DNA from: a virus
Virus record (IMG/VR): IMGVR_UViG_3300009093_000009
Length of the DNA stretch: 64,000 nucleotides
Strand: one strand, 5' to 3'
The stretch's first letter is position 1, and each line of letters starts with the position of its first letter. A program made the translations under genes and the position numbers. The notes beneath the pieces were generated by a model. It worked only from the letters and a program-made list of their open reading frames with translations, searched no databases and had not been told where the DNA came from. Below are positions 1 to 64,000 of this stretch, piece by piece.

Positions 1-1
1 C

Positions 2-307
2 CGTCGCTTAGGCGACGAAGGGCTGCGCGCACTGCTACGCGAAATCGAGAGCGTGGCAGGCCATCGCGGAGAACGGATAACCTGCCATCCCTTACGATCC
101 AACTACGCGACCTATGCCCACTATCAGGCGCAGATGCCGTCTCAGGCCGTGCAGATCACGATGGGACACTCCCGACTAGCGACGACTGAGCAATACTTCC
201 GCAAGCGCCCCAAGGCCGCTATCGACGGCATGAAGGCCATGCCTATTCGGGAGGCAGCACGACCGGAACGGATTGATCTCCGCCGGGTTAGGCAGGGTCG
301 ATCCTGA
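2..307 (+). CDS. int: Tyrosine recombinase/integrase, C-terminal part (5' end lies outside the window)
   Basis: Frame open to the window start. ...ITCHPLRSNYATY...MGHSRLATTEQY matches the HxxR box, the GHS box and the catalytic-Tyr region of tyrosine recombinases. Confidence 0.85.
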   Translation, partial: RRLGDEGLRALLREIESVAGHRGERITCHPLRSNYATYAHYQAQMPSQAVQITMGHSRLATTEQYFRKRPKAAIDGMKAMPIREAARPERIDLRRVRQGRS

Positions 308-7101: not shown

Positions 7102-7683
7102 TTGGTAAGAGCACAGCGTTTTGGAGCATGGGTCCAGCAATATCGAACCGATCATGATTGGTCGCAGACGGACTGCGCCGATAGGGTGCAGGAGTACCTA
7201 CGTAACAAGAACCCCGATGCAACCTTTACGCGCGGCGGATGGAGCAAGATCGAACTCTCCCCGGATGGCAGGCAGCCTAGGCGCGATAGGGTACTTCATG
7301 TAAGCATCGGGCTGAACCTGCCGCTGCATGTGGTTGAGCAGGCGGCAGGATATGGCCCATCGTCGGTGGACTTGCCATCGTTTAATGCCATGCTTGGCGA
7401 TCAACTGAAGCGGTGCCGCAAGCAGGCAGATATGAGCATCGAGGATGTCGCCGACATTATCGGCGTGGGCGTGACACTGGTGGCCGCGTGGGAGACGGGA
7501 TCGTCTATCCCCGATCTTTATCAGGCGTTTGCCATGAGCAGGCTTTATGGATGCTCTATCGACAGCTTTGTAACCGATGCCACGGAGCAGGCCGTCGTGC
7601 GTATGCGGCCCACTCTGAAGGATGAACTCGCGCAGCTTAGATCGGAACTCTCCGCTATCCGCCAGCTTGTGCAGCGGGAGTAG
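7102..7683 (+). CDS. CI-like repressor with two XRE-type HTH domains
   Basis: Two HTH_XRE-like segments (FGAWVQQYRTDHDWSQTDCADRV; LKRCRKQADMSIEDVADIIGVGVTLVAAWETG). TTG start behind a GAAGGAAGGG RBS. It is the only rightward gene in the early region. Confidence 0.75.
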   Translation: MVRAQRFGAWVQQYRTDHDWSQTDCADRVQEYLRNKNPDATFTRGGWSKIELSPDGRQPRRDRVLHVSIGLNLPLHVVEQAAGYGPSSVDLPSFNAMLGDQLKRCRKQADMSIEDVADIIGVGVTLVAAWETGSSIPDLYQAFAMSRLYGCSIDSFVTDATEQAVVRMRPTLKDELAQLRSELSAIRQLVQRE

Positions 7684-10671: not shown

Positions 10672-11137
10672 CCGTGGCGGCTCCCTTCTCGGCTACCATC
10701 TTATCGTAGAGTGCTTCGGAAAGCGTGATCATTCGCTTTCGTATCGCTTCTTCCTGCCGTAAGAATTCCGCGGCGGCTTCCTTATGACGGTCGTACTCTT
10801 CCTTTTGCATGGCCTGCACTTCGATCAGTTCGGAGTGAGTAGCTTTGTCAGAGATACCGAGTGCATGGAAGTCAGCGGTATCGCCGGTTTCCAGAACGGC
10901 CTGATAGCTTTTCCATCTGGACTTACTCTGCCTCTTACCGACGATCTTGACGACCCATCCATGGTAACGATCAACTGCTTCGATGACAGGCACGACTACG
11001 GCGGCATCGACCTTCTTTCTGATGGCGGCAAGGCTTGTGGCCGTAAGAACTTGTCCCGATACATGGGCCTCAAACTTGCCATTCTCCAGCAGGAATATCT
11101 GCTGGCCTTTATAGTCATCCAGCCTGGTTTTTGTCAT
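10649..11137 (-). CDS. Hypothetical protein
   Basis: Start at MTKTRL behind an AAGGAGAG RBS. Confidence 0.55.
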   Translation of the reverse strand: MTKTRLDDYKGQQIFLLENGKFEAHVSGQVLTATSLAAIRKKVDAAVVVPVIEAVDRYHGWVVKIVGKRQSKSRWKSYQAVLETGDTADFHALGISDKATHSELIEVQAMQKEEYDRHKEAAAEFLRQEEAIRKRMITLSEALYDKMVAEKGAATDVDDTNG

Positions 11138-57895: not shown

Positions 57896-60895
57896 ATGTC
57901 TAACGTCTTCACGGAAGATTTTGATGGCGTAACCGCGCCCACGCTCCCTTCCACCATCACGGCGGCGGGAACCTACCAGACATCGGCCACGCACGCTCAG
58001 ACAAGTCCCAACAGCGTCGTGGCTGCTGTCACGGGTGGCCTGAATGCCGCCGTCTGCTACTTCAATGGCGCGGACGATGGCAATGGCGGAAACAGCGTGG
58101 CGCGGCTCTACGTGGGCGCGGAGGCGCTGGTAGGCGGCGTTGCGGCGGCAATGGCCTACAACCGCATGACCACGCCCACCATCAGCAATGGCACGCTGGT
58201 AGGTTATCGTCTCTATATCGACTTCGTTCTTGGCCGTCTCCAGATGGACGAGATAAGCCTGGGGGCTGGCCTGGGCCTGGGTCATGTCGATAGCACGGAT
58301 TTCTTTACCGTTCCCGAACACTACATCCTGGAACTGGAAACCAATCTTCACCTGATAACGGGCCGCGTTCAGAGACAGTCCGATGGGCATTGGCTCGACA
58401 ATTCAGGCGCGTGGCAGAGCAGTATCCAGGACTGCATCGTGGCGACAGACTATACCGTCACCGGCGCGGGCTACGCGGGATTTGCCATCGCTATCTCAAG
58501 CATGTCGAACGTGCTGTGGGTCGATGACCTGTCCCTGGATACCGTCGTCGCGCCCATCCAGATATTCATCGATGGCTCGCCCTCGGACGGCCCGCTCTAT
58601 CTTTCCAGGGCGGAAGTCGCCGATCCCTCCACGGCGGCTGATGGCAGCCTGATCCTATCGAGAGCAGAGATACCCGACAGCTTCCTGCCTTCCGTGGAAG
58701 CCCTGTCGATGCAGCCCTTCTTCTCTCTCTTCGATGACGCCCGCATCGGCGTGGATTACATCGGGGTAGCAGGCGGAGCCTTCTCCTTCGATCCCGATGG
58801 CCCTGCCGATGCATCGAGCGATACTATCGCCATCACGAACTACCACCTCTCGATAGAGGATCAGGGATCGGCTGCCGTCGATGGGTTTGCCGTCGCGCCT
58901 TACTATATCCTGAATGAGCCTGATCCCGTGGCGGGCGATCTTGCCATGGCCGCAAAGTACGATGCTTCCGCCTGCGCAGCCTCCAAGTACCATAGCGGCA
59001 TCGCGCAGAACTGGAGTATATCGGGCAAGCTGCGTAACATTACGCACATGGCACCGAGCGGTCCAGACTTCTTTCACAATAATCTGACCGGCATTCCGCT
59101 AACCGCTTTCTGGTTCTCCTACTCCGACCCTTTTGTCGTCAAGATATGCGGCGGCGCGGGAGTTCCCGGAGGCGTCGATGAGTGCGTCTATCAGACTACA
59201 TCCCTATCGCACGCCACCACCGATAAGAATGGAGCCTTCTCATTCACAAATACAGGCATGAACATGGATGCCTGCCAAATACTGATAGGCACCTATATCA
59301 AAAACCCGATCTACGATCCCATCAACTGCGGAACGTTCGATGCGTGGGGCAATAGTTCTCTACAGGAGTACATTCTTGATAGGTCCGACTTTGAGTGGCG
59401 CTGGTATGCAGGACTGTCCATCAAGCAGCGCTTTACGCCCAACGCCTCCTCGCTCTCTGCCTTTAACGCCCTGATGCCGACCTACGCCGTGCTTCTTCTC
59501 GGACCTGACAGTCCTGGAGAAGTATTCTATGGCACCAGCAGTAACCGGCCTGGCGATAGCACGTCCTGGATCGTGGACGCCTGGGTCGATAATAACAGAC
59601 CGCTATCTATCTACGGCTTTGCCAATGGCGCTATCCACGATGTCACTCCCTATTATGCCAACGCAGGGCAGGGCAGGGTGCGCATCACGGACGGCTACGG
59701 CAGGAGCGGTATCTGCTATCCGATCTATCCCACGGGCAACCTGGGGCTGATGGCGCTTGCCATTTCCGATGGCGTGGAGTGGTGGTATGTCACGAAGGTC
59801 GAACTCCTCGATTATACGCCTACCTTCGCGGAAATCATGGCATCGCCCATCAAGAGCCATCGGCCTGACGGGCCGCAATCCGATTATTTTCTCGACTATG
59901 GAGTGAAGGTCAATCCTCCCGATACTAACTTTTCCGATACCAGAAGCCAGATCGGGAACCGTATCATGGGACCGGGAGAGTTTTATGCCTTAACCGGCAT
60001 GGCTGTCGATCCCGCGCTTCGTAACCGAAGCGTAAGCAGCTTCAAGGATACCGTGGTCTTCGCCTGGATCAACGATGCGGGCGCGCTAAAGGTAGCCCGC
60101 CATCGCAGCATAAAAGGCCATATCGGGCATCCGACCGATGGCTGGCTTGCCACGCAAACCCTGATGACGGCGAACGCCGCGCACGTCGCCGTGACATTTA
60201 TCCACACATCCCGATGCTACATCGCGGCCCTGGACACGTCCACGGGATCGGGAAAGCTGTGGGTATCGGATGACAATGGCGATACCTGGACGCCCACGAC
60301 GGAGGGAGCAGCTTTCGAGAGCAGCGACTTTGGGCAGGGCTTGACCGCAGCCTGCTATGTGAATGCAAGCGGAGGCGATAGCGCTCCCTTCTTCGCGCAG
60401 CTTCGGGATAACAAGGGCGCGTCATGGGTCACGGAGACGGTCATCGGCAGTGGTGGGGAGCCTACGGAACTCTTTGCGGGAATCGCGTTCCTGAAGTCGG
60501 GATGGGCGATGGCCTGGAACTTCGGCAGTGAAGTGCATACGGCCTTCACTACAGGTTATCCGGCATCTACCGTCACGGCTGGCCTTGTGGTCAATAATAC
60601 GGTGCTGACGAGCGTGACGACTCTATCGGGTAAGTGCGTGGGAATGGTGCGCGGAGGCGCGGGAAGCCTTATCATGCTGCTCTACGATACGACCGCCAGA
60701 ACTTCCCGGCTGGCCTGGAGCGGCGACCGTGGGAAGACCTGGCGGCAGATGGCATCGGCCATGACCTTAGTGCCTACCATGATGCAGGCTCCCGCAATTG
60801 TGGCGCTGGAAGGCGGATACGCAGCAGTTTGCTGGCAGGAAAGTGATGTGCCGAAATTCCGACTAACACTGGATACCGGCAGGACGGTGCAGTAA
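57896..60895 (+). CDS. Tail fibre / receptor-binding protein with C-terminal BNR (Asp-box) beta-propeller
   Basis: 999 aa, last late gene. Asp-box-like repeats SDDNGDTW and SGDRGKTW, with a weaker DNKGASW. Confidence 0.65.
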   Translation: MSNVFTEDFDGVTAPTLPSTITAAGTYQTSATHAQTSPNSVVAAVTGGLNAAVCYFNGADDGNGGNSVARLYVGAEALVGGVAAAMAYNRMTTPTISNGTLVGYRLYIDFVLGRLQMDEISLGAGLGLGHVDSTDFFTVPEHYILELETNLHLITGRVQRQSDGHWLDNSGAWQSSIQDCIVATDYTVTGAGYAGFAIAISSMSNVLWVDDLSLDTVVAPIQIFIDGSPSDGPLYLSRAEVADPSTAADGSLILSRAEIPDSFLPSVEALSMQPFFSLFDDARIGVDYIGVAGGAFSFDPDGPADASSDTIAITNYHLSIEDQGSAAVDGFAVAPYYILNEPDPVAGDLAMAAKYDASACAASKYHSGIAQNWSISGKLRNITHMAPSGPDFFHNNLTGIPLTAFWFSYSDPFVVKICGGAGVPGGVDECVYQTTSLSHATTDKNGAFSFTNTGMNMDACQILIGTYIKNPIYDPINCGTFDAWGNSSLQEYILDRSDFEWRWYAGLSIKQRFTPNASSLSAFNALMPTYAVLLLGPDSPGEVFYGTSSNRPGDSTSWIVDAWVDNNRPLSIYGFANGAIHDVTPYYANAGQGRVRITDGYGRSGICYPIYPTGNLGLMALAISDGVEWWYVTKVELLDYTPTFAEIMASPIKSHRPDGPQSDYFLDYGVKVNPPDTNFSDTRSQIGNRIMGPGEFYALTGMAVDPALRNRSVSSFKDTVVFAWINDAGALKVARHRSIKGHIGHPTDGWLATQTLMTANAAHVAVTFIHTSRCYIAALDTSTGSGKLWVSDDNGDTWTPTTEGAAFESSDFGQGLTAACYVNASGGDSAPFFAQLRDNKGASWVTETVIGSGGEPTELFAGIAFLKSGWAMAWNFGSEVHTAFTTGYPASTVTAGLVVNNTVLTSVTTLSGKCVGMVRGGAGSLIMLLYDTTARTSRLAWSGDRGKTWRQMASAMTLVPTMMQAPAIVALEGGYAAVCWQESDVPKFRLTLDTGRTVQ

Positions 60896-61283
60896 GGTCG
60901 AGCGGTTCTTCCTGGCACAGTGACAGCAGAAACGCCTCCAAATGTGGGCAGGCAGGTAATGTACTATGCCAGGAGTTCCCATCGTGTGACGCCTGGTAGA
61001 TCAGGTCGTTCAGAGTGTTCTCGGTGAATGCTAGGACAAAATCAGGTCCATTGCCTTCCTGCTTACTGAACTTCGGAAACTCGATGATCCAGAAGCAGCC
61101 ATACGGATCACACTCGTAGCATCGATACTCCGTTAGGCACGTTTTTATCTTATAGATGCCATAGGCTGTGTCGAAGTATCGAGAGCAGAGCACCTGCTTC
61201 TGTGCGTGCATGACACGATGGCGTTCGAAGTCTGTGAGCATCTTTTCTTCGACAGAAGCAGATCGATATTCTTTACGCGTCAT
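60774..61283 (-). CDS. Hypothetical cargo protein
   Basis: 169-aa ORF in AT-richer DNA. The last ~40 codons overlap the convergent fibre gene and look non-protein-like. Confidence 0.45.
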   Translation of the reverse strand: MTRKEYRSASVEEKMLTDFERHRVMHAQKQVLCSRYFDTAYGIYKIKTCLTEYRCYECDPYGCFWIIEFPKFSKQEGNGPDFVLAFTENTLNDLIYQASHDGNSWHSTLPACPHLEAFLLSLCQEEPLDLTAPSCRYPVLVGISAHHFPASKLLRIRLPAPQLREPASW

Positions 61284-61584
61284 TCTTCATTAACTCCGCG
61301 TCATGCATCGGTCGCGTTTCTTTTGGGATATATGTAAACGAAGCCACAAGGTTTCCTTGACGATTTACGACAATCCTGTTCCGATTGTCTTGAATGTATC
61401 CATACTCCTCCATTTTAATGATGCTCTTATGAAGATCATCTGGATGTAAGGAAAGTGTCAGTATCGTTGCTGGCATTCCGATGGTATTGGTAACTGTCGT
61501 GTAGTTGAACTCCAGGGCTATGCCATCGAGAAATGCGTCCAGGTCTTCCGGCACGCTTTCGAGCAGGGTTTCTCTTAGTGTCAT
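61273..61584 (-). CDS. Hypothetical cargo protein
   Basis: 103-aa ORF coupled to its neighbours. Confidence 0.5.
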   Translation of the reverse strand: MTLRETLLESVPEDLDAFLDGIALEFNYTTVTNTIGMPATILTLSLHPDDLHKSIIKMEEYGYIQDNRNRIVVNRQGNLVASFTYIPKETRPMHDAELMKNDA

Positions 61585-61808
61585 GGCTTTTCCACCTGCA
61601 TTATCTTTGATAGCTTGTCTTCCCAGGCTGCCAATTCCGAGATCACGCGACGATAGTCCGACATCTCTTCTTCGGTAAGTTCCGCGAACTCGAATTCTCT
61701 TCTGGGCCAGGGATTATCTTTAACATAGTGCGCGCTTTCAGGATCATCGTATGGGTTTTTACCTTCTACCCACATCCCATCTTCGCCCACATGAAAGTAT
61801 ATTTTCAT
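61581..61808 (-). CDS. Hypothetical cargo protein
   Basis: 75-aa ORF behind motif + AAGGAGAGAGA RBS. Confidence 0.5.
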   Translation of the reverse strand: MKIYFHVGEDGMWVEGKNPYDDPESAHYVKDNPWPRREFEFAELTEEEMSDYRRVISELAAWEDKLSKIMQVEKP

Positions 61809-61824
61809 TCTCTCTCCTTAAAAA

Positions 61825-61842
61825 TGCGACCCACGGGTCACA
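61825..61842. repeat. Palindromic motif copy 10
   Basis: TGCGACCCACGGGTCACA, 16 nt upstream of the start at 61808 and abutting the stop of the peptidase gene. Confidence 0.95.
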
Positions 61843-62667
61843 CTATCCGCTGATCGATGTAGCCGTCCAGGCGTCGAAGACCATCAGCGGATGCTTCATT
61901 ATGGCGTAGGGTATCAGTACGTCTCCCTTGATATAGCCCCAATTCGGACCTTTGCAGTTCCTGCACAAGAACTGCTGCTTCACCCGATCATATCCAATGG
62001 CGCAGAGCGCGTGACTATCATAGATGAAGCCTAGCTTATCGGCGGGTGGCATCGGTAGCACGCCGTTCCGATCCGTGTGCATATTGTCGTAGTAGATGAT
62101 ACCGAAGACGAAGCTGTGGCCCGAAGCGATGCAGGCTTCCATGTCTTCGATCACGTAAGAATTGCCATCGGGCGCTCGCTTCACGGTAAGGCAGGACGCT
62201 TCTATGACCTTGTGCTTTGCGGCTTCCGCCAGGGCAGATTTGTCGGGCGTCGAGTACCAGTGAGCCTTCGTGTAGCCGTAGTACACTTCGGAGCACAGCC
62301 CTATTTGCTGCGCCGAAGTGATTGCGTCTGCCACAGCTACACCAGAATTCTGCTTCGTCCTGGCTGTGCCGCCTCCACGAAGTCGAGCATCATACCAAGA
62401 CAGCATCCGTGATGGCAGCGAACGGTTGGCAGGATTATCGACTGGAAGGCCTAGCCTGTGTCGCAGGTGATCGAGATGGATGGATAGCTGGTTTGCCACA
62501 CAGTTGTTCGATGGTCCCTGGTCAACTGGTTTACCGATATAGTTATCGAACTCTGCCTTCAGGCTGAATACTGGTAGTATATCCCGTGTAATCTTAGGCT
62601 GAAATATCGGGAACTTGCTTTCATCGTCAGGCCTAATTGCGCCTGGACCTACTCTTTTATCGGACAT
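61843..62667 (-). CDS. Papain-family (C1) cysteine peptidase
   Basis: PVDQGPSNNCVANQ (Gln/Cys box), HALCAIGYD (His box), RNCKGPNWGYIKG (Asn-x-W-G box). Start at MSDKRVG behind GGGAGAAAGAG. No signal peptide. Confidence 0.7.
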   Translation of the reverse strand: MSDKRVGPGAIRPDDESKFPIFQPKITRDILPVFSLKAEFDNYIGKPVDQGPSNNCVANQLSIHLDHLRHRLGLPVDNPANRSLPSRMLSWYDARLRGGGTARTKQNSGVAVADAITSAQQIGLCSEVYYGYTKAHWYSTPDKSALAEAAKHKVIEASCLTVKRAPDGNSYVIEDMEACIASGHSFVFGIIYYDNMHTDRNGVLPMPPADKLGFIYDSHALCAIGYDRVKQQFLCRNCKGPNWGYIKGDVLIPYAIMKHPLMVFDAWTATSISG

Positions 62668-62872
62668 TGCTCTTTCTCCCTGGATACACCTGTAGCTTGG
62701 ATGGAGGTATGGACATTCGGGATACGCCATGCCCTACTTCTACCCATTCGTATCCTTCTGCGTCGAACCATGTTCTTTCGACCATCGCGTATACGAATGG
62801 CATAAAGAAGCCTGGCTTTGCCTCGACGCATACGCCGTTAAGAAAGGTAGGAACTTTTTCCATTAACCACAT
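62657..62872 (-). CDS. Hypothetical protein upstream of the peptidase
   Basis: 71-aa ORF overlapping the peptidase start by 11 nt. Confidence 0.45.
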   Translation of the reverse strand: MWLMEKVPTFLNGVCVEAKPGFFMPFVYAMVERTWFDAEGYEWVEVGHGVSRMSIPPSKLQVYPGRKSNVR

Positions 62873-62898
62873 CCTTTCTCCATGGTATAAGTGTCTAC

Positions 62899-62927
62899 TT
62901 GTACCGGCAGGAGTTTTGTATTATACT
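62899..62927 (+). promoter_or_regulatory. Sigma70-type promoter facing the tRNA fragment
   Basis: TTGTAC (62899-62904), 17-nt spacer, TATACT (62922-62927). Preceded by GTCTAC. About 50 nt upstream of the tRNA-like 5' end. Confidence 0.55.
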
Positions 62928-62976
62928 CTTTCCATCACCCGGCTTGAGTTCAGGAGCAATGGTATCGGCGTCGTTT

Positions 62977-63018
62977 GGGCGGTTGGCTCAGTGGTAGAGC
63001 ACTTCGTTCACACCGAAA
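62977..63018 (+). tRNA. 5' portion only of a tRNA-Val(CAC)-like sequence (acceptor 5' strand, D arm, anticodon arm); candidate attP core
   Basis: GGGCGGT TG GCTC AGTGGTA GAGC A CTTCG TTCACAC CGAAA. No T arm and no ACCGCCC 3' acceptor strand downstream. Adjacent to the integrase. Confidence 0.6.
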
Positions 63019-63120
63019 ATCGGTGGAATGGATAGCCGTTTTCATACTGCTTGAACCTGTTCACACCTTCCATCGATGCCCCAAAATGCCTCTCCTGCGC
63101 TCTCTGCCGGGTGTAAGTAC

Positions 63121-63330
63121 CTATTTCGGCTGAACCATTTTCTTCAAGGCTTTTTCGCACCGCTTACATTTATCGACATTGAAAAAGTCGGGCGACCATA
63201 CGCTTCTCCTAATACCGCAGGCTGATTTGCTGATGTGTTTGAAGACTGCGTGCAATGGTTTCCCGGCAACCTGATACCAACTGTATCCCGGTGTGTTGAC
63301 CCATTCAAAGTCGATGCCTTCGGTCGGCAT
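63121..63330 (-). CDS. Small Cys-containing protein divergent from the integrase (possible directionality factor)
   Basis: 69-aa ORF between the att-like site and int. C...CKRC. No excisionase motif recognised. Confidence 0.4.
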   Translation of the reverse strand: MPTEGIDFEWVNTPGYSWYQVAGKPLHAVFKHISKSACGIRRSVWSPDFFNVDKCKRCEKALKKMVQPK

Positions 63331-63356
63331 AGGAAATCCTTTCTAGGAGAGAAATA

Positions 63357-64000
63357 TGCCTGCACCATCCAATTCCCTCACTCACCTGCTCACCCGATAT
63401 GTGGAAGCCATGTCGAGCGTCGAAGGTAAATCCAAGACCACTATCAAGAGCTACCAGAACCGGCTCCGCATCTTCGTTCGATGGGCTGGCGATGGAGCCA
63501 CGCTCGATGCTGTCACGGAGAGCACGCTGTACGACTTTCTCGACTACCTGAACGCCCGTAAGACCGATGACGGCAGGCCCATCTGCAAGACGACCGTGAA
63601 CACCTTCTTTAATGCGCTCAGAGCGTTTGGCGCATGGCTGGTAGTCCGTCGTTATTGGCAGGAAAACATCGTGGCAGCAGTGAAGATACCGGATCGCTCC
63701 GAACCCGACCGCCGCTATGTCGAAGATCAGACCGTGACCGATCTTCTCTCTGCCTGCAACAAAATCTATCCACTACGACGGTCCCTGATGGCAACCTTAG
63801 TCATCAGGCTTCTCTGCTACAGCGGCATCAGGCGAAGCGAACTGCTCAACATGCACCTGGATCATATCAATATCAGGGCCAACGAAATCACGATCCATCA
63901 TGGTAAGGGAGATAAGACGCGCGTGCTTGGACTGCATCCTGAAATCCGATCCGCCTATCTTGCGTGGAGAACCGCTCGTGGAGAGTGCCATAATCCCAAT
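63357..64000 (+). CDS. int: Tyrosine recombinase/integrase, N-terminal two-thirds (3' end outside the window)
   Basis: Hand translation gives MPAPSNSLTHLLTRYVEAM...KTTIKSYQNRLRIFVRW (SAM-like N domain), CYSGIRRSELLNM (catalytic Arg box), HHGKGDKTRV (Lys beta-hairpin). AGGAGAG RBS. Open to the window end. Confidence 0.85.

Follow-up and report, generated by a model that had tools for sequence, protein, structure and literature searches.

A candidate phage attachment site carrying the 5′ part of tRNA-Val(CAC) beside a Xer-like integrase gene

tRNA attachment sites described so far and the present locus

Attachment sites in tRNA genes normally carry the 3′ part of the gene, as the first-pass annotation of this DNA had pointed out. 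Recombination with the 5′ part is considerably less frequent, in the words of PMC6563490, where bacterial (Zhao & Williams 2002) and archaeal examples are cited. The bacterial elements of Zhao & Williams (J Bacteriol 184:859), such as they are described in the papers citing them (PMC6563490, PMC1635311), reverse the usual orientation of the tRNA target, and a configuration with a "5′ fragment upstream" is provided for in the Islander algorithm (PMC4383910). In Thermococcales, the pTN3-like and TKV4 integrases have as their attB a tRNA gene's 5′ half (Cossu et al. 2017, PMC5495485; PMC8371274), and with the pTN3-like enzymes the restored tRNA is expressed from the integrase promoter, which is supplied by the element (PMC8371274). 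Classical sites in the anticodon loop are credited to Williams 2002 (Nucleic Acids Res 30:866) by PMC1635311 and PMC8371274.

The locus described here is, quite probably, the attP of a temperate phage with a circular genome of 64,020 bp, with a Xer-like integrase, a core in the anticodon arm of tRNA-Val(CAC), tRNA identity retained 5′ of the crossover, and a tRNA product that depends on a phage promoter. Integration with reversed polarity into tRNA genes is rare but documented, and by its sequence the phage appears to fit that class. It resembles the Zhao & Williams elements, to the extent that the citing papers describe them, in that the 5′ tRNA portion is carried by the element and the restored gene would be expressed from element DNA. 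It differs from them, within the same limits, in being a complete tailed phage in the attP state rather than an integrated island, in having probably an Armatimonadota host and tRNA-Val(CAC) as target, and in the availability of a sister site of opposite polarity. The predicted use of the 5′ half, with an intact gene restored next to a promoter (here a candidate) on the element side, is shared with pTN3 and TKV4. However, the archaeal enzymes are "suicidal" integrases of the SSV type: their attP is located within the int reading frame, and the tRNA is driven by the int promoter. In the present phage, attP (ending at 63017) is found 340 bp before the start (63356) of a bacterial-type int that is intact, and the promoter candidate, a distinct sigma-70-like motif, is located in the opposite arm.

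Compared to the classical anticodon-loop sites, as outlined in the papers citing Williams 2002 and as found in the sister phage and in a host island (see below), the int gene again lies beside attP, the 7-nt loop with its palindromic stem is again the likely core, and one end of the identity block coincides exactly with an end of the gene. [quoted passage not shown] Gp33 of mycobacteriophage Brujita is an arm-less, "simple" phage tyrosine integrase. The integrase of the present phage is likewise a two-domain protein of about 320 aa without a separate arm-binding domain, at low similarity (5vfz), but unlike for gp33, its site has a conserved partial core copy 53 bp away, suggesting an accessory site.

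The phage genome and the tRNA fragment beside the integrase gene

The window, by which we mean the whole stretch of 64,000 nt that was analysed, is a rotated circular assembly of a 64,020-bp genome. The source contig at ENA (k141_4393738, MEGAHIT, k=141) is 64,161 nt long, that is 64,020 nt plus the 141-nt k-mer overlap, and the last and first bases of the window are 20 nt apart. These 20 nt, missing between window 64000 and window 1, belong to the integrase gene; on contig L012 the window end, the 20-nt gap and the window start are contiguous, and int ends at position 10972, equivalent to window 307. Gene content includes a major head protein, a terminase, long tail proteins, a divergent HTH repressor pair and the integrase, and GC is about 56% throughout: this is the genome of a temperate tailed phage. 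As the genome is circular and phage genes flank the tRNA fragment on both sides, the fragment is in an attP (unintegrated) configuration.

The integrase, P0001, is carried on the same ENA contig and has 323 aa in an intact reading frame, its first 215 codons at 63356-64000 (+ strand) and its 3′ end at 1-307 (+ strand). It starts 340 bp from the fragment. Pfam domains Phage_integrase and Phage_int_SAM_1/4/5 identify a tyrosine recombinase with a SAM-like N-terminal domain, adjoining the site, in a Xer-like two-domain architecture without a separate arm-binding domain. NCBIfam gave sub-threshold matches to XerA, XerC and XerD, and the relatives found in the PDB were XerA, XerD, XerH and Brujita gp33 (5vfz, E = 5.8e-5).

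Between the core and int, gene calling on the source contig placed an ORF of 69 aa (63121-63330, − strand), with no Pfam or PHROG match and absent from the sister phage, which might possibly encode an excisionase. On the other side, five small or medium genes form a leftward operon (60774-62872, − strand) between the tail genes and attP. It too is absent from the sister, and could be lysis or lysogenic-conversion cargo. Its first gene, of 71 aa (62657-62872, − strand), has the RBS GGAGAAAGG before its ATG, and its only matching product is a 274-aa protein (61843-62667, − strand) with a weak hit to a PHROG peptidase family (E = 1e-4). Next to the operon lies the gene for a 999-aa tail protein (57896-60895, + strand), probably the receptor-binding protein; its C-terminal ~60 residues are conserved in the sister (47% identity), and its only domain match is a faint one to Sortilin-Vps10 repeats.

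The tRNA identity block, GGGCGGTTGGCTCAGTGGTAGAGCACTTCGTTCACACCGAA, occupies 62977-63017 (+ strand) and corresponds to nucleotides 1-41 of tRNA-Val(CAC), i. e. the 5′ acceptor strand, the D arm, the 5′ strand of the anticodon stem, the loop TTCACAC and 4 of the 5 bases of the stem's 3′ strand. A search for the host gene retrieved the exact 41-mer in 26 representative genomes, and in each of them (26/26) a complete tRNA-Val(CAC) gene begins with it, a match (41/41) far above chance expectation. Identity with the 26 host loci covers tRNA bases 1 to 41, starting precisely at the first base and ending within the anticodon stem: base 42 is a G in the host genes and an A in the phage (63018). The block thus ends exactly at the gene end in all 26 genomes, and the proposal that this DNA folds as the 5′ part of a tRNA-Val(CAC) is borne out, the identity (to 63017) being one base shorter than the fold first described (to 63018).

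The remainder of the tRNA is missing, as had also been noticed on first reading. ARAGORN called no tRNA gene in the whole window, and Rfam at its gathering score (29 for the tRNA model) detected neither a complete tRNA nor any other tRNA-like sequence there. The fragment itself scored 28.6 bits, with only its first 42 positions confidently aligned and the remainder forced. A complete phage-encoded tRNA gene was discarded on the basis of these two results. T arm and 3′ acceptor strand are lacking, and ACCGCCC does not occur near the fragment on the + strand. A decayed 3′ half downstream was also rejected, as the 43 nt at 63018-63060 aligned locally with three host tRNA 3′ parts no better than shuffled sequences did (p = 0.3-0.6). 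A weak acceptor pairing threaded by Rfam was dropped as evidence, because such a pairing has a chance of ~0.1 in the search space. ARAGORN, Rfam, the alignments and the ACCGCCC search therefore all describe an element with the 5′ portion of its target tRNA and without the 3′ portion. The fold of the region is ordinary (z = −1.1), and no alternative candidate attachment site was seen in the whole window.

The phage was also present in another sample, as a contig from the Logan assembly of SRR6056503 (k=31), 100% identical to it over 10.3 kb, which stops exactly 30 nt (k−1) into the fragment. The 64,039 nt of this contig equal 64,020 + 19, as would be predicted if it broke to either side of the eleven shared 31-mers. 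A break at shared 31-mers implies that the 41-mer occurs in another context in the SRR6056503 sample, most simply in what would be the host gene. All three contigs carrying the phage are unintegrated or broken at the site.

The sister site, the core and the candidate promoter

Only one close relative of the integrase was found in the protein collection, P0002 (53-55% identity), encoded on a 1.8-kb contig (L013), so that the comparative evidence consists of a single pair. More distant relatives (L001-L011 and L040-L043; at most 34% identity) have no tRNA or obvious tRNA-Val fragment beside int, and are therefore uninformative. L013 comprises the end of a homologue of the 999-aa tail protein, an intergenic region and int. 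On the int strand, the intergenic region contains bases 22-76 of tRNA-Val(CAC), AGCACTTCGTTCACACCGAAGGGGTCACTGGTTCGAATCCAGTATCGCCCA, ending at the discriminator base; the 3′ part at 368-418 (51 nt) is 100% identical to three Chthonomonadales genes. The 3′ part in L013 and the 5′ part in the window are complementary, and occupy the same position upstream of int. We read L013 as a classical 3′-type attP and the window as its 5′-type complement at the same place. Such a pair of sister sites, of opposite polarity at one core, seems undescribed in the accessible literature. A residual 5′ half in L013 was not significant (p = 0.23), and the 90-nt "tRNA-Pro(ggg)" called there by ARAGORN (329-418) is an artefact, composed of the genuine tRNA-Val 3′ part (368-418) and unrelated upstream sequence. 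Alignments of the P arms and of the P′ arms between the two phages were not significant either (p = 0.39 and 0.30), the one notable feature being the positional agreement of two elements, a TATAnT block and a repeat of TTCACACC, both treated below.

The anticodon stem-loop AGCACTTCGTTCACACCGAA is the sole sequence common to the attP of the window and that of the sister. Comparing the two with the host attB yields AGCAC-TTCG-TTCACAC-CGAA (62998-63017) as the putative recombination core. The minimal segment in common with the repeat of a host island (L018, see below) is 63003-63017 (TTCG TTCACAC CGAA). Taken together, the window site, the sister site and the island fragment would confine the crossover to TTCG-TTCACAC-CGAA, with the 7-nt anticodon loop (63007-63013) as the likely overlap region. 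The original proposal of this stem and its TTCACAC loop as an integrase core thus gains from being the only segment that the two phage sites have in common.

Downstream of the core, a second copy of GTTCACACC is found in the P′ arm. As had been reported, the copies are at 63006-63014 and 63059-63067, 53 bp apart; they are the only two on the + strand in 64 kb, and a repeat search extended the second into a 20-nt direct repeat of 75% identity (63059-63078, + strand). The spacing is conserved in the sister. In both phages a second TTCACACC lies toward int, at an offset of 53 bp in the window and 54 bp in L013 (377 and 431), and repetition of this 8-mer at an equal offset is very unlikely by chance. 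The second copy of TTCACACC or GTTCACACC is probably an accessory integrase-binding site. A further dyad, CACCGAAAATCGGTG (CACCGA-AAA-TCGGTG), is indeed present at 63011-63025 and spans the point where tRNA identity gives way to phage-specific sequence; no evidence was found that would give it a role, and it is absent from the sister. Two diverged direct repeats were also observed in the P arm, 62853-62895 versus 62925-62972, with a spacing of 72-77 nt (pairs ACTTTTTCCATTAACC / ACTCTTTCCATCACCC and ATGGTATAAGTGTC / ATGGTATCGGCGTC); these may be additional sites for protein binding, or may match by chance.

The promoter-like motif that the first-pass annotation had placed some 50 nt upstream of the fragment, and pointing at it, is present in the P arm (62899-62927, + strand): TTGTAC (62899-62904), a 17-nt spacer and TATACT (62922-62927), followed by a phage-specific leader of 49 nt (62928-62976) up to tRNA base 1. 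It is a candidate promoter for the rebuilt tRNA. It was missed by a standard promoter scan, since it matches at no more than 8 of 12 positions; the −35 element is weak (TTG only). The looser pattern TTGNNN-16..18-TANANT has 12 occurrences per 128 kb strand, giving a chance of ~0.01 for the 104-nt spacer, so that the placement of the motif appears modestly beyond chance. Promoters of the host tRNA-Val genes read TTGAC(A/G)-17/18-TA(C/T)A(A/C)T, one of the genes having a 48-nt leader, and the −10 hexamer TATACT is identical to that of three of them (L022, L024 and L029). The phage leader has no similarity to the upstream region in 25 of the 26 host genes; in the exception (L033), 9 of the 11 bases directly upstream of the tRNA match it.

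The −10 hexamer TATACT (+ strand) is part of an AT-rich block, GTATTATACTC (62914-62930), whose − strand contains a perfect TATAAT. This TATAAT lies 45 nt upstream of the 71-aa gene with which the leftward operon begins (27 bp, 62873-62898, separate the operon start from the motif) and could serve this operon. The block could accordingly be an overlapping, divergent pair of −10 elements for the tRNA fragment and the operon. A −10-like (TATAnT) block is also found in L013, 67 nt left of the core compared to 69 nt in the window; its alignment between the two phages is not significant by score alone, and L013, being a 3′-type site, does not need such a block for its tRNA. The sole + strand gene upstream near the fragment is a late tail gene, and the restored tRNA would therefore need a phage promoter.

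In the mechanism that we propose, the integrase would recombine TTCG-TTCACAC-CGAA of attP with its identical counterpart in the host tRNA-Val(CAC) gene, strand exchange taking place within the anticodon loop, whose 7 bp are probably the overlap region. Since the part of attP that is identical to the tRNA lies 5′ of the crossover, the rebuilt tRNA would take its 5′ part and its upstream region from the phage. One junction would consist of the phage P arm, the phage-derived 5′ part and the host 3′ part, making an intact tRNA-Val gene (predicted attR: ...GGCGTCGTTT, tRNA bases 1-41, GGGGTC...). Its expression would depend on a phage promoter, for which TTGTAC-17-TATACT is the candidate, and the 71-aa gene of the leftward operon would be its neighbour after integration. 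The other junction would join the host promoter and tRNA bases 1-41 to AATCGGTGG, leaving a dead fragment that points toward int (predicted attL: host upstream sequence, tRNA bases 1-41, AATCGGTGGAATGG...); no intrinsic terminator was predicted between the fragment and int.

Host loci, rival explanations and implications

The 26 genomes with the 41-mer are mostly Armatimonadota (Chthonomonadales and Fimbriimonadales), together with five Sericytochromatia. The exact match points to Armatimonadota, and an Armatimonadota bacterium is the most likely host of the phage. Classical insertions at tRNA-Val(CAC) were found at 3 of the 26 host loci (L017, L018 and L022), and the gene appears to be an integration hot spot in Armatimonadota. 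In two of them, integrases of 23-27% identity are encoded directly after the tRNA and on its strand (L017, 5192-5965; L022, 4384-5091), with a partial core copy, CACTTCGTTC, between tRNA and int, an indication that sites of more distant elements share this architecture. The third is a 6.4-kb island in classical orientation, in a Fimbriimonadaceae MAG (L018, 150-6670), bounded by a displaced 46-nt fragment of the tRNA 3′ part that starts exactly at the TTCG of the anticodon stem. Broken pieces of integrase, of 109 and 190 aa, are encoded in the island, as is a protein of 995 aa that combines Mrr_cat, NACHT and FGE-sulfatase domains and looks like the product of a defence gene.

Two Armatimonadota genomes have a truncated, tRNA-like 5′ fragment just upstream of the intact tRNA-Val(CAC) gene (L039, 982-1362; L030, ~7440-7524). 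The first 25 nt are like tRNA-Val, and are followed by an odd anticodon arm, TCCCGGCACGCCGGGA, common to both; in L039, a 94-aa GIY-YIG gene separates fragment and tRNA. The different anticodon arm rules out these fragments as attL of the phage.

Searches for the integrated state gave no matches: none for the 24-mer joining P arm and tRNA in the genome contig collection, none for the 56-mer of the hybrid attR in the metagenome contig collection, none for a gapped pattern of core and repeat in the viral and metagenome contig collections, and none for the 41-mer in the viral contig collection. DNA or proteins of this phage were not found at the 26 host loci, tblastx of the window included. Neither an attL or attR junction nor a lysogen was thus detected in the genome, metagenome and viral collections, which may be a sampling effect. 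Two viral candidates were set aside: MT838510.1, the sole match in the phage database, has a complete tRNA-Val(CAC) gene, and the viral contig L047 has a cluster of tRNAs that is host-like and differs in the 5′ half.

The central proposal, an attP carrying the 5′ part of tRNA-Val(CAC), draws on observations made directly in the sequences: a 41/41 identity with sharp limits, an assembly that closes into a circle, an integrase gene next to the site, and the sister's complementary 3′ part and conserved TTCACACC. Beyond these, we infer the position of the crossover, integration itself and the function of the promoter. This last element is the one questioned if attP works as such and the motif belongs instead to the leftward operon or to int, or is an arm element. 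The rebuilt tRNA would then be poorly expressed or silent, which is tolerable if another tRNA-Val reads GUG, as tRNA-Val(UAC) is often able to do. Such an assignment would suit the perfect minus-strand TATAAT that overlaps the motif with the 71-aa gene starting 45 nt downstream, the −10-like block equally far from the core in the sister, whose site supplies the 3′ part, and the failure of the motif in the standard scan. We nevertheless hold it to be unlikely, as identity reaching to tRNA base 1 is hard to explain without selection for an intact, usable gene, no source of transcription in the lysogen is evident other than the motif, the nearest upstream + strand gene being a late tail gene, and the −10 hexamer is the same as in several host tRNA-Val promoters. 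The same motif, pointing at the fragment with no terminator predicted downstream, might also have the free phage express the 5′ half as a small RNA similar to a tRNA half, a decoy or regulator, in place of the att role or alongside it. We consider this highly improbable: the region has no structural signal (z = −1.1) and belongs to no Rfam family, the sister carries the other half without such an arrangement, and nothing requires it.

Could the fragment be unrelated to attachment? Phages often carry tRNA genes, and a decayed remnant of one, with the real attP elsewhere, would account for the pairing that Rfam threads between GGGCGGU and ACUGCUU, 28 nt downstream of the anticodon arm and with three G-U pairs. 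It would not account for 41/41 identity with a sharp boundary, next to 43 nt unlike a tRNA 3′ part (p = 0.3-0.6), nor for a position adjacent to int whose geometry matches the tRNA-derived site of the sister; with no other tRNA-like sequence or candidate site seen in the window, a remnant is very unlikely. Finally, that the Logan contig (k=31) breaks exactly at the shared 41-mer is what one would also expect if phage and host DNA had been joined artificially through the shared tRNA sequence. The chance of this is negligible: k=141 in the MEGAHIT assembly exceeds the 41-nt shared segment, and with reads spanning both flanks it precludes a chimera through a 41-nt repeat; moreover the circle closes with phage genes on both sides, host-like DNA was found on neither side of the fragment, and a third contig has the same arrangement.

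We retain, as the most probable one, the reading of the locus as a 5′-type attP with a candidate promoter of its own. For the biology of a lysogen, this would mean that the host tRNA promoter is left facing int with no predicted terminator in between, an unusual regulatory layout. As for the host, the exact 41-mer points to Armatimonadota, for which few if any phages have, to our knowledge, been described. The case is also of consequence for software that maps prophages, which mostly expects a 3′ fragment beside int.

The two sister phages have related integrases, the same core and the same arm geometry, with opposite tRNA halves. On this basis we tentatively raise the possibility, itself rather doubtful, that the tRNA half carried by attP is not fixed within an integrase lineage. 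The simplest route suggested by the pair is an ancestral attP with a complete, promoter-driven tRNA-Val gene, of which different lineages lost different halves; the P-arm promoter would then be older than the 5′-type site, and would have enabled the switch of polarity. A matched pair of this kind, with related integrases acting at one core and opposite halves retained, could make the origin and the polarity of tRNA attachment sites testable.
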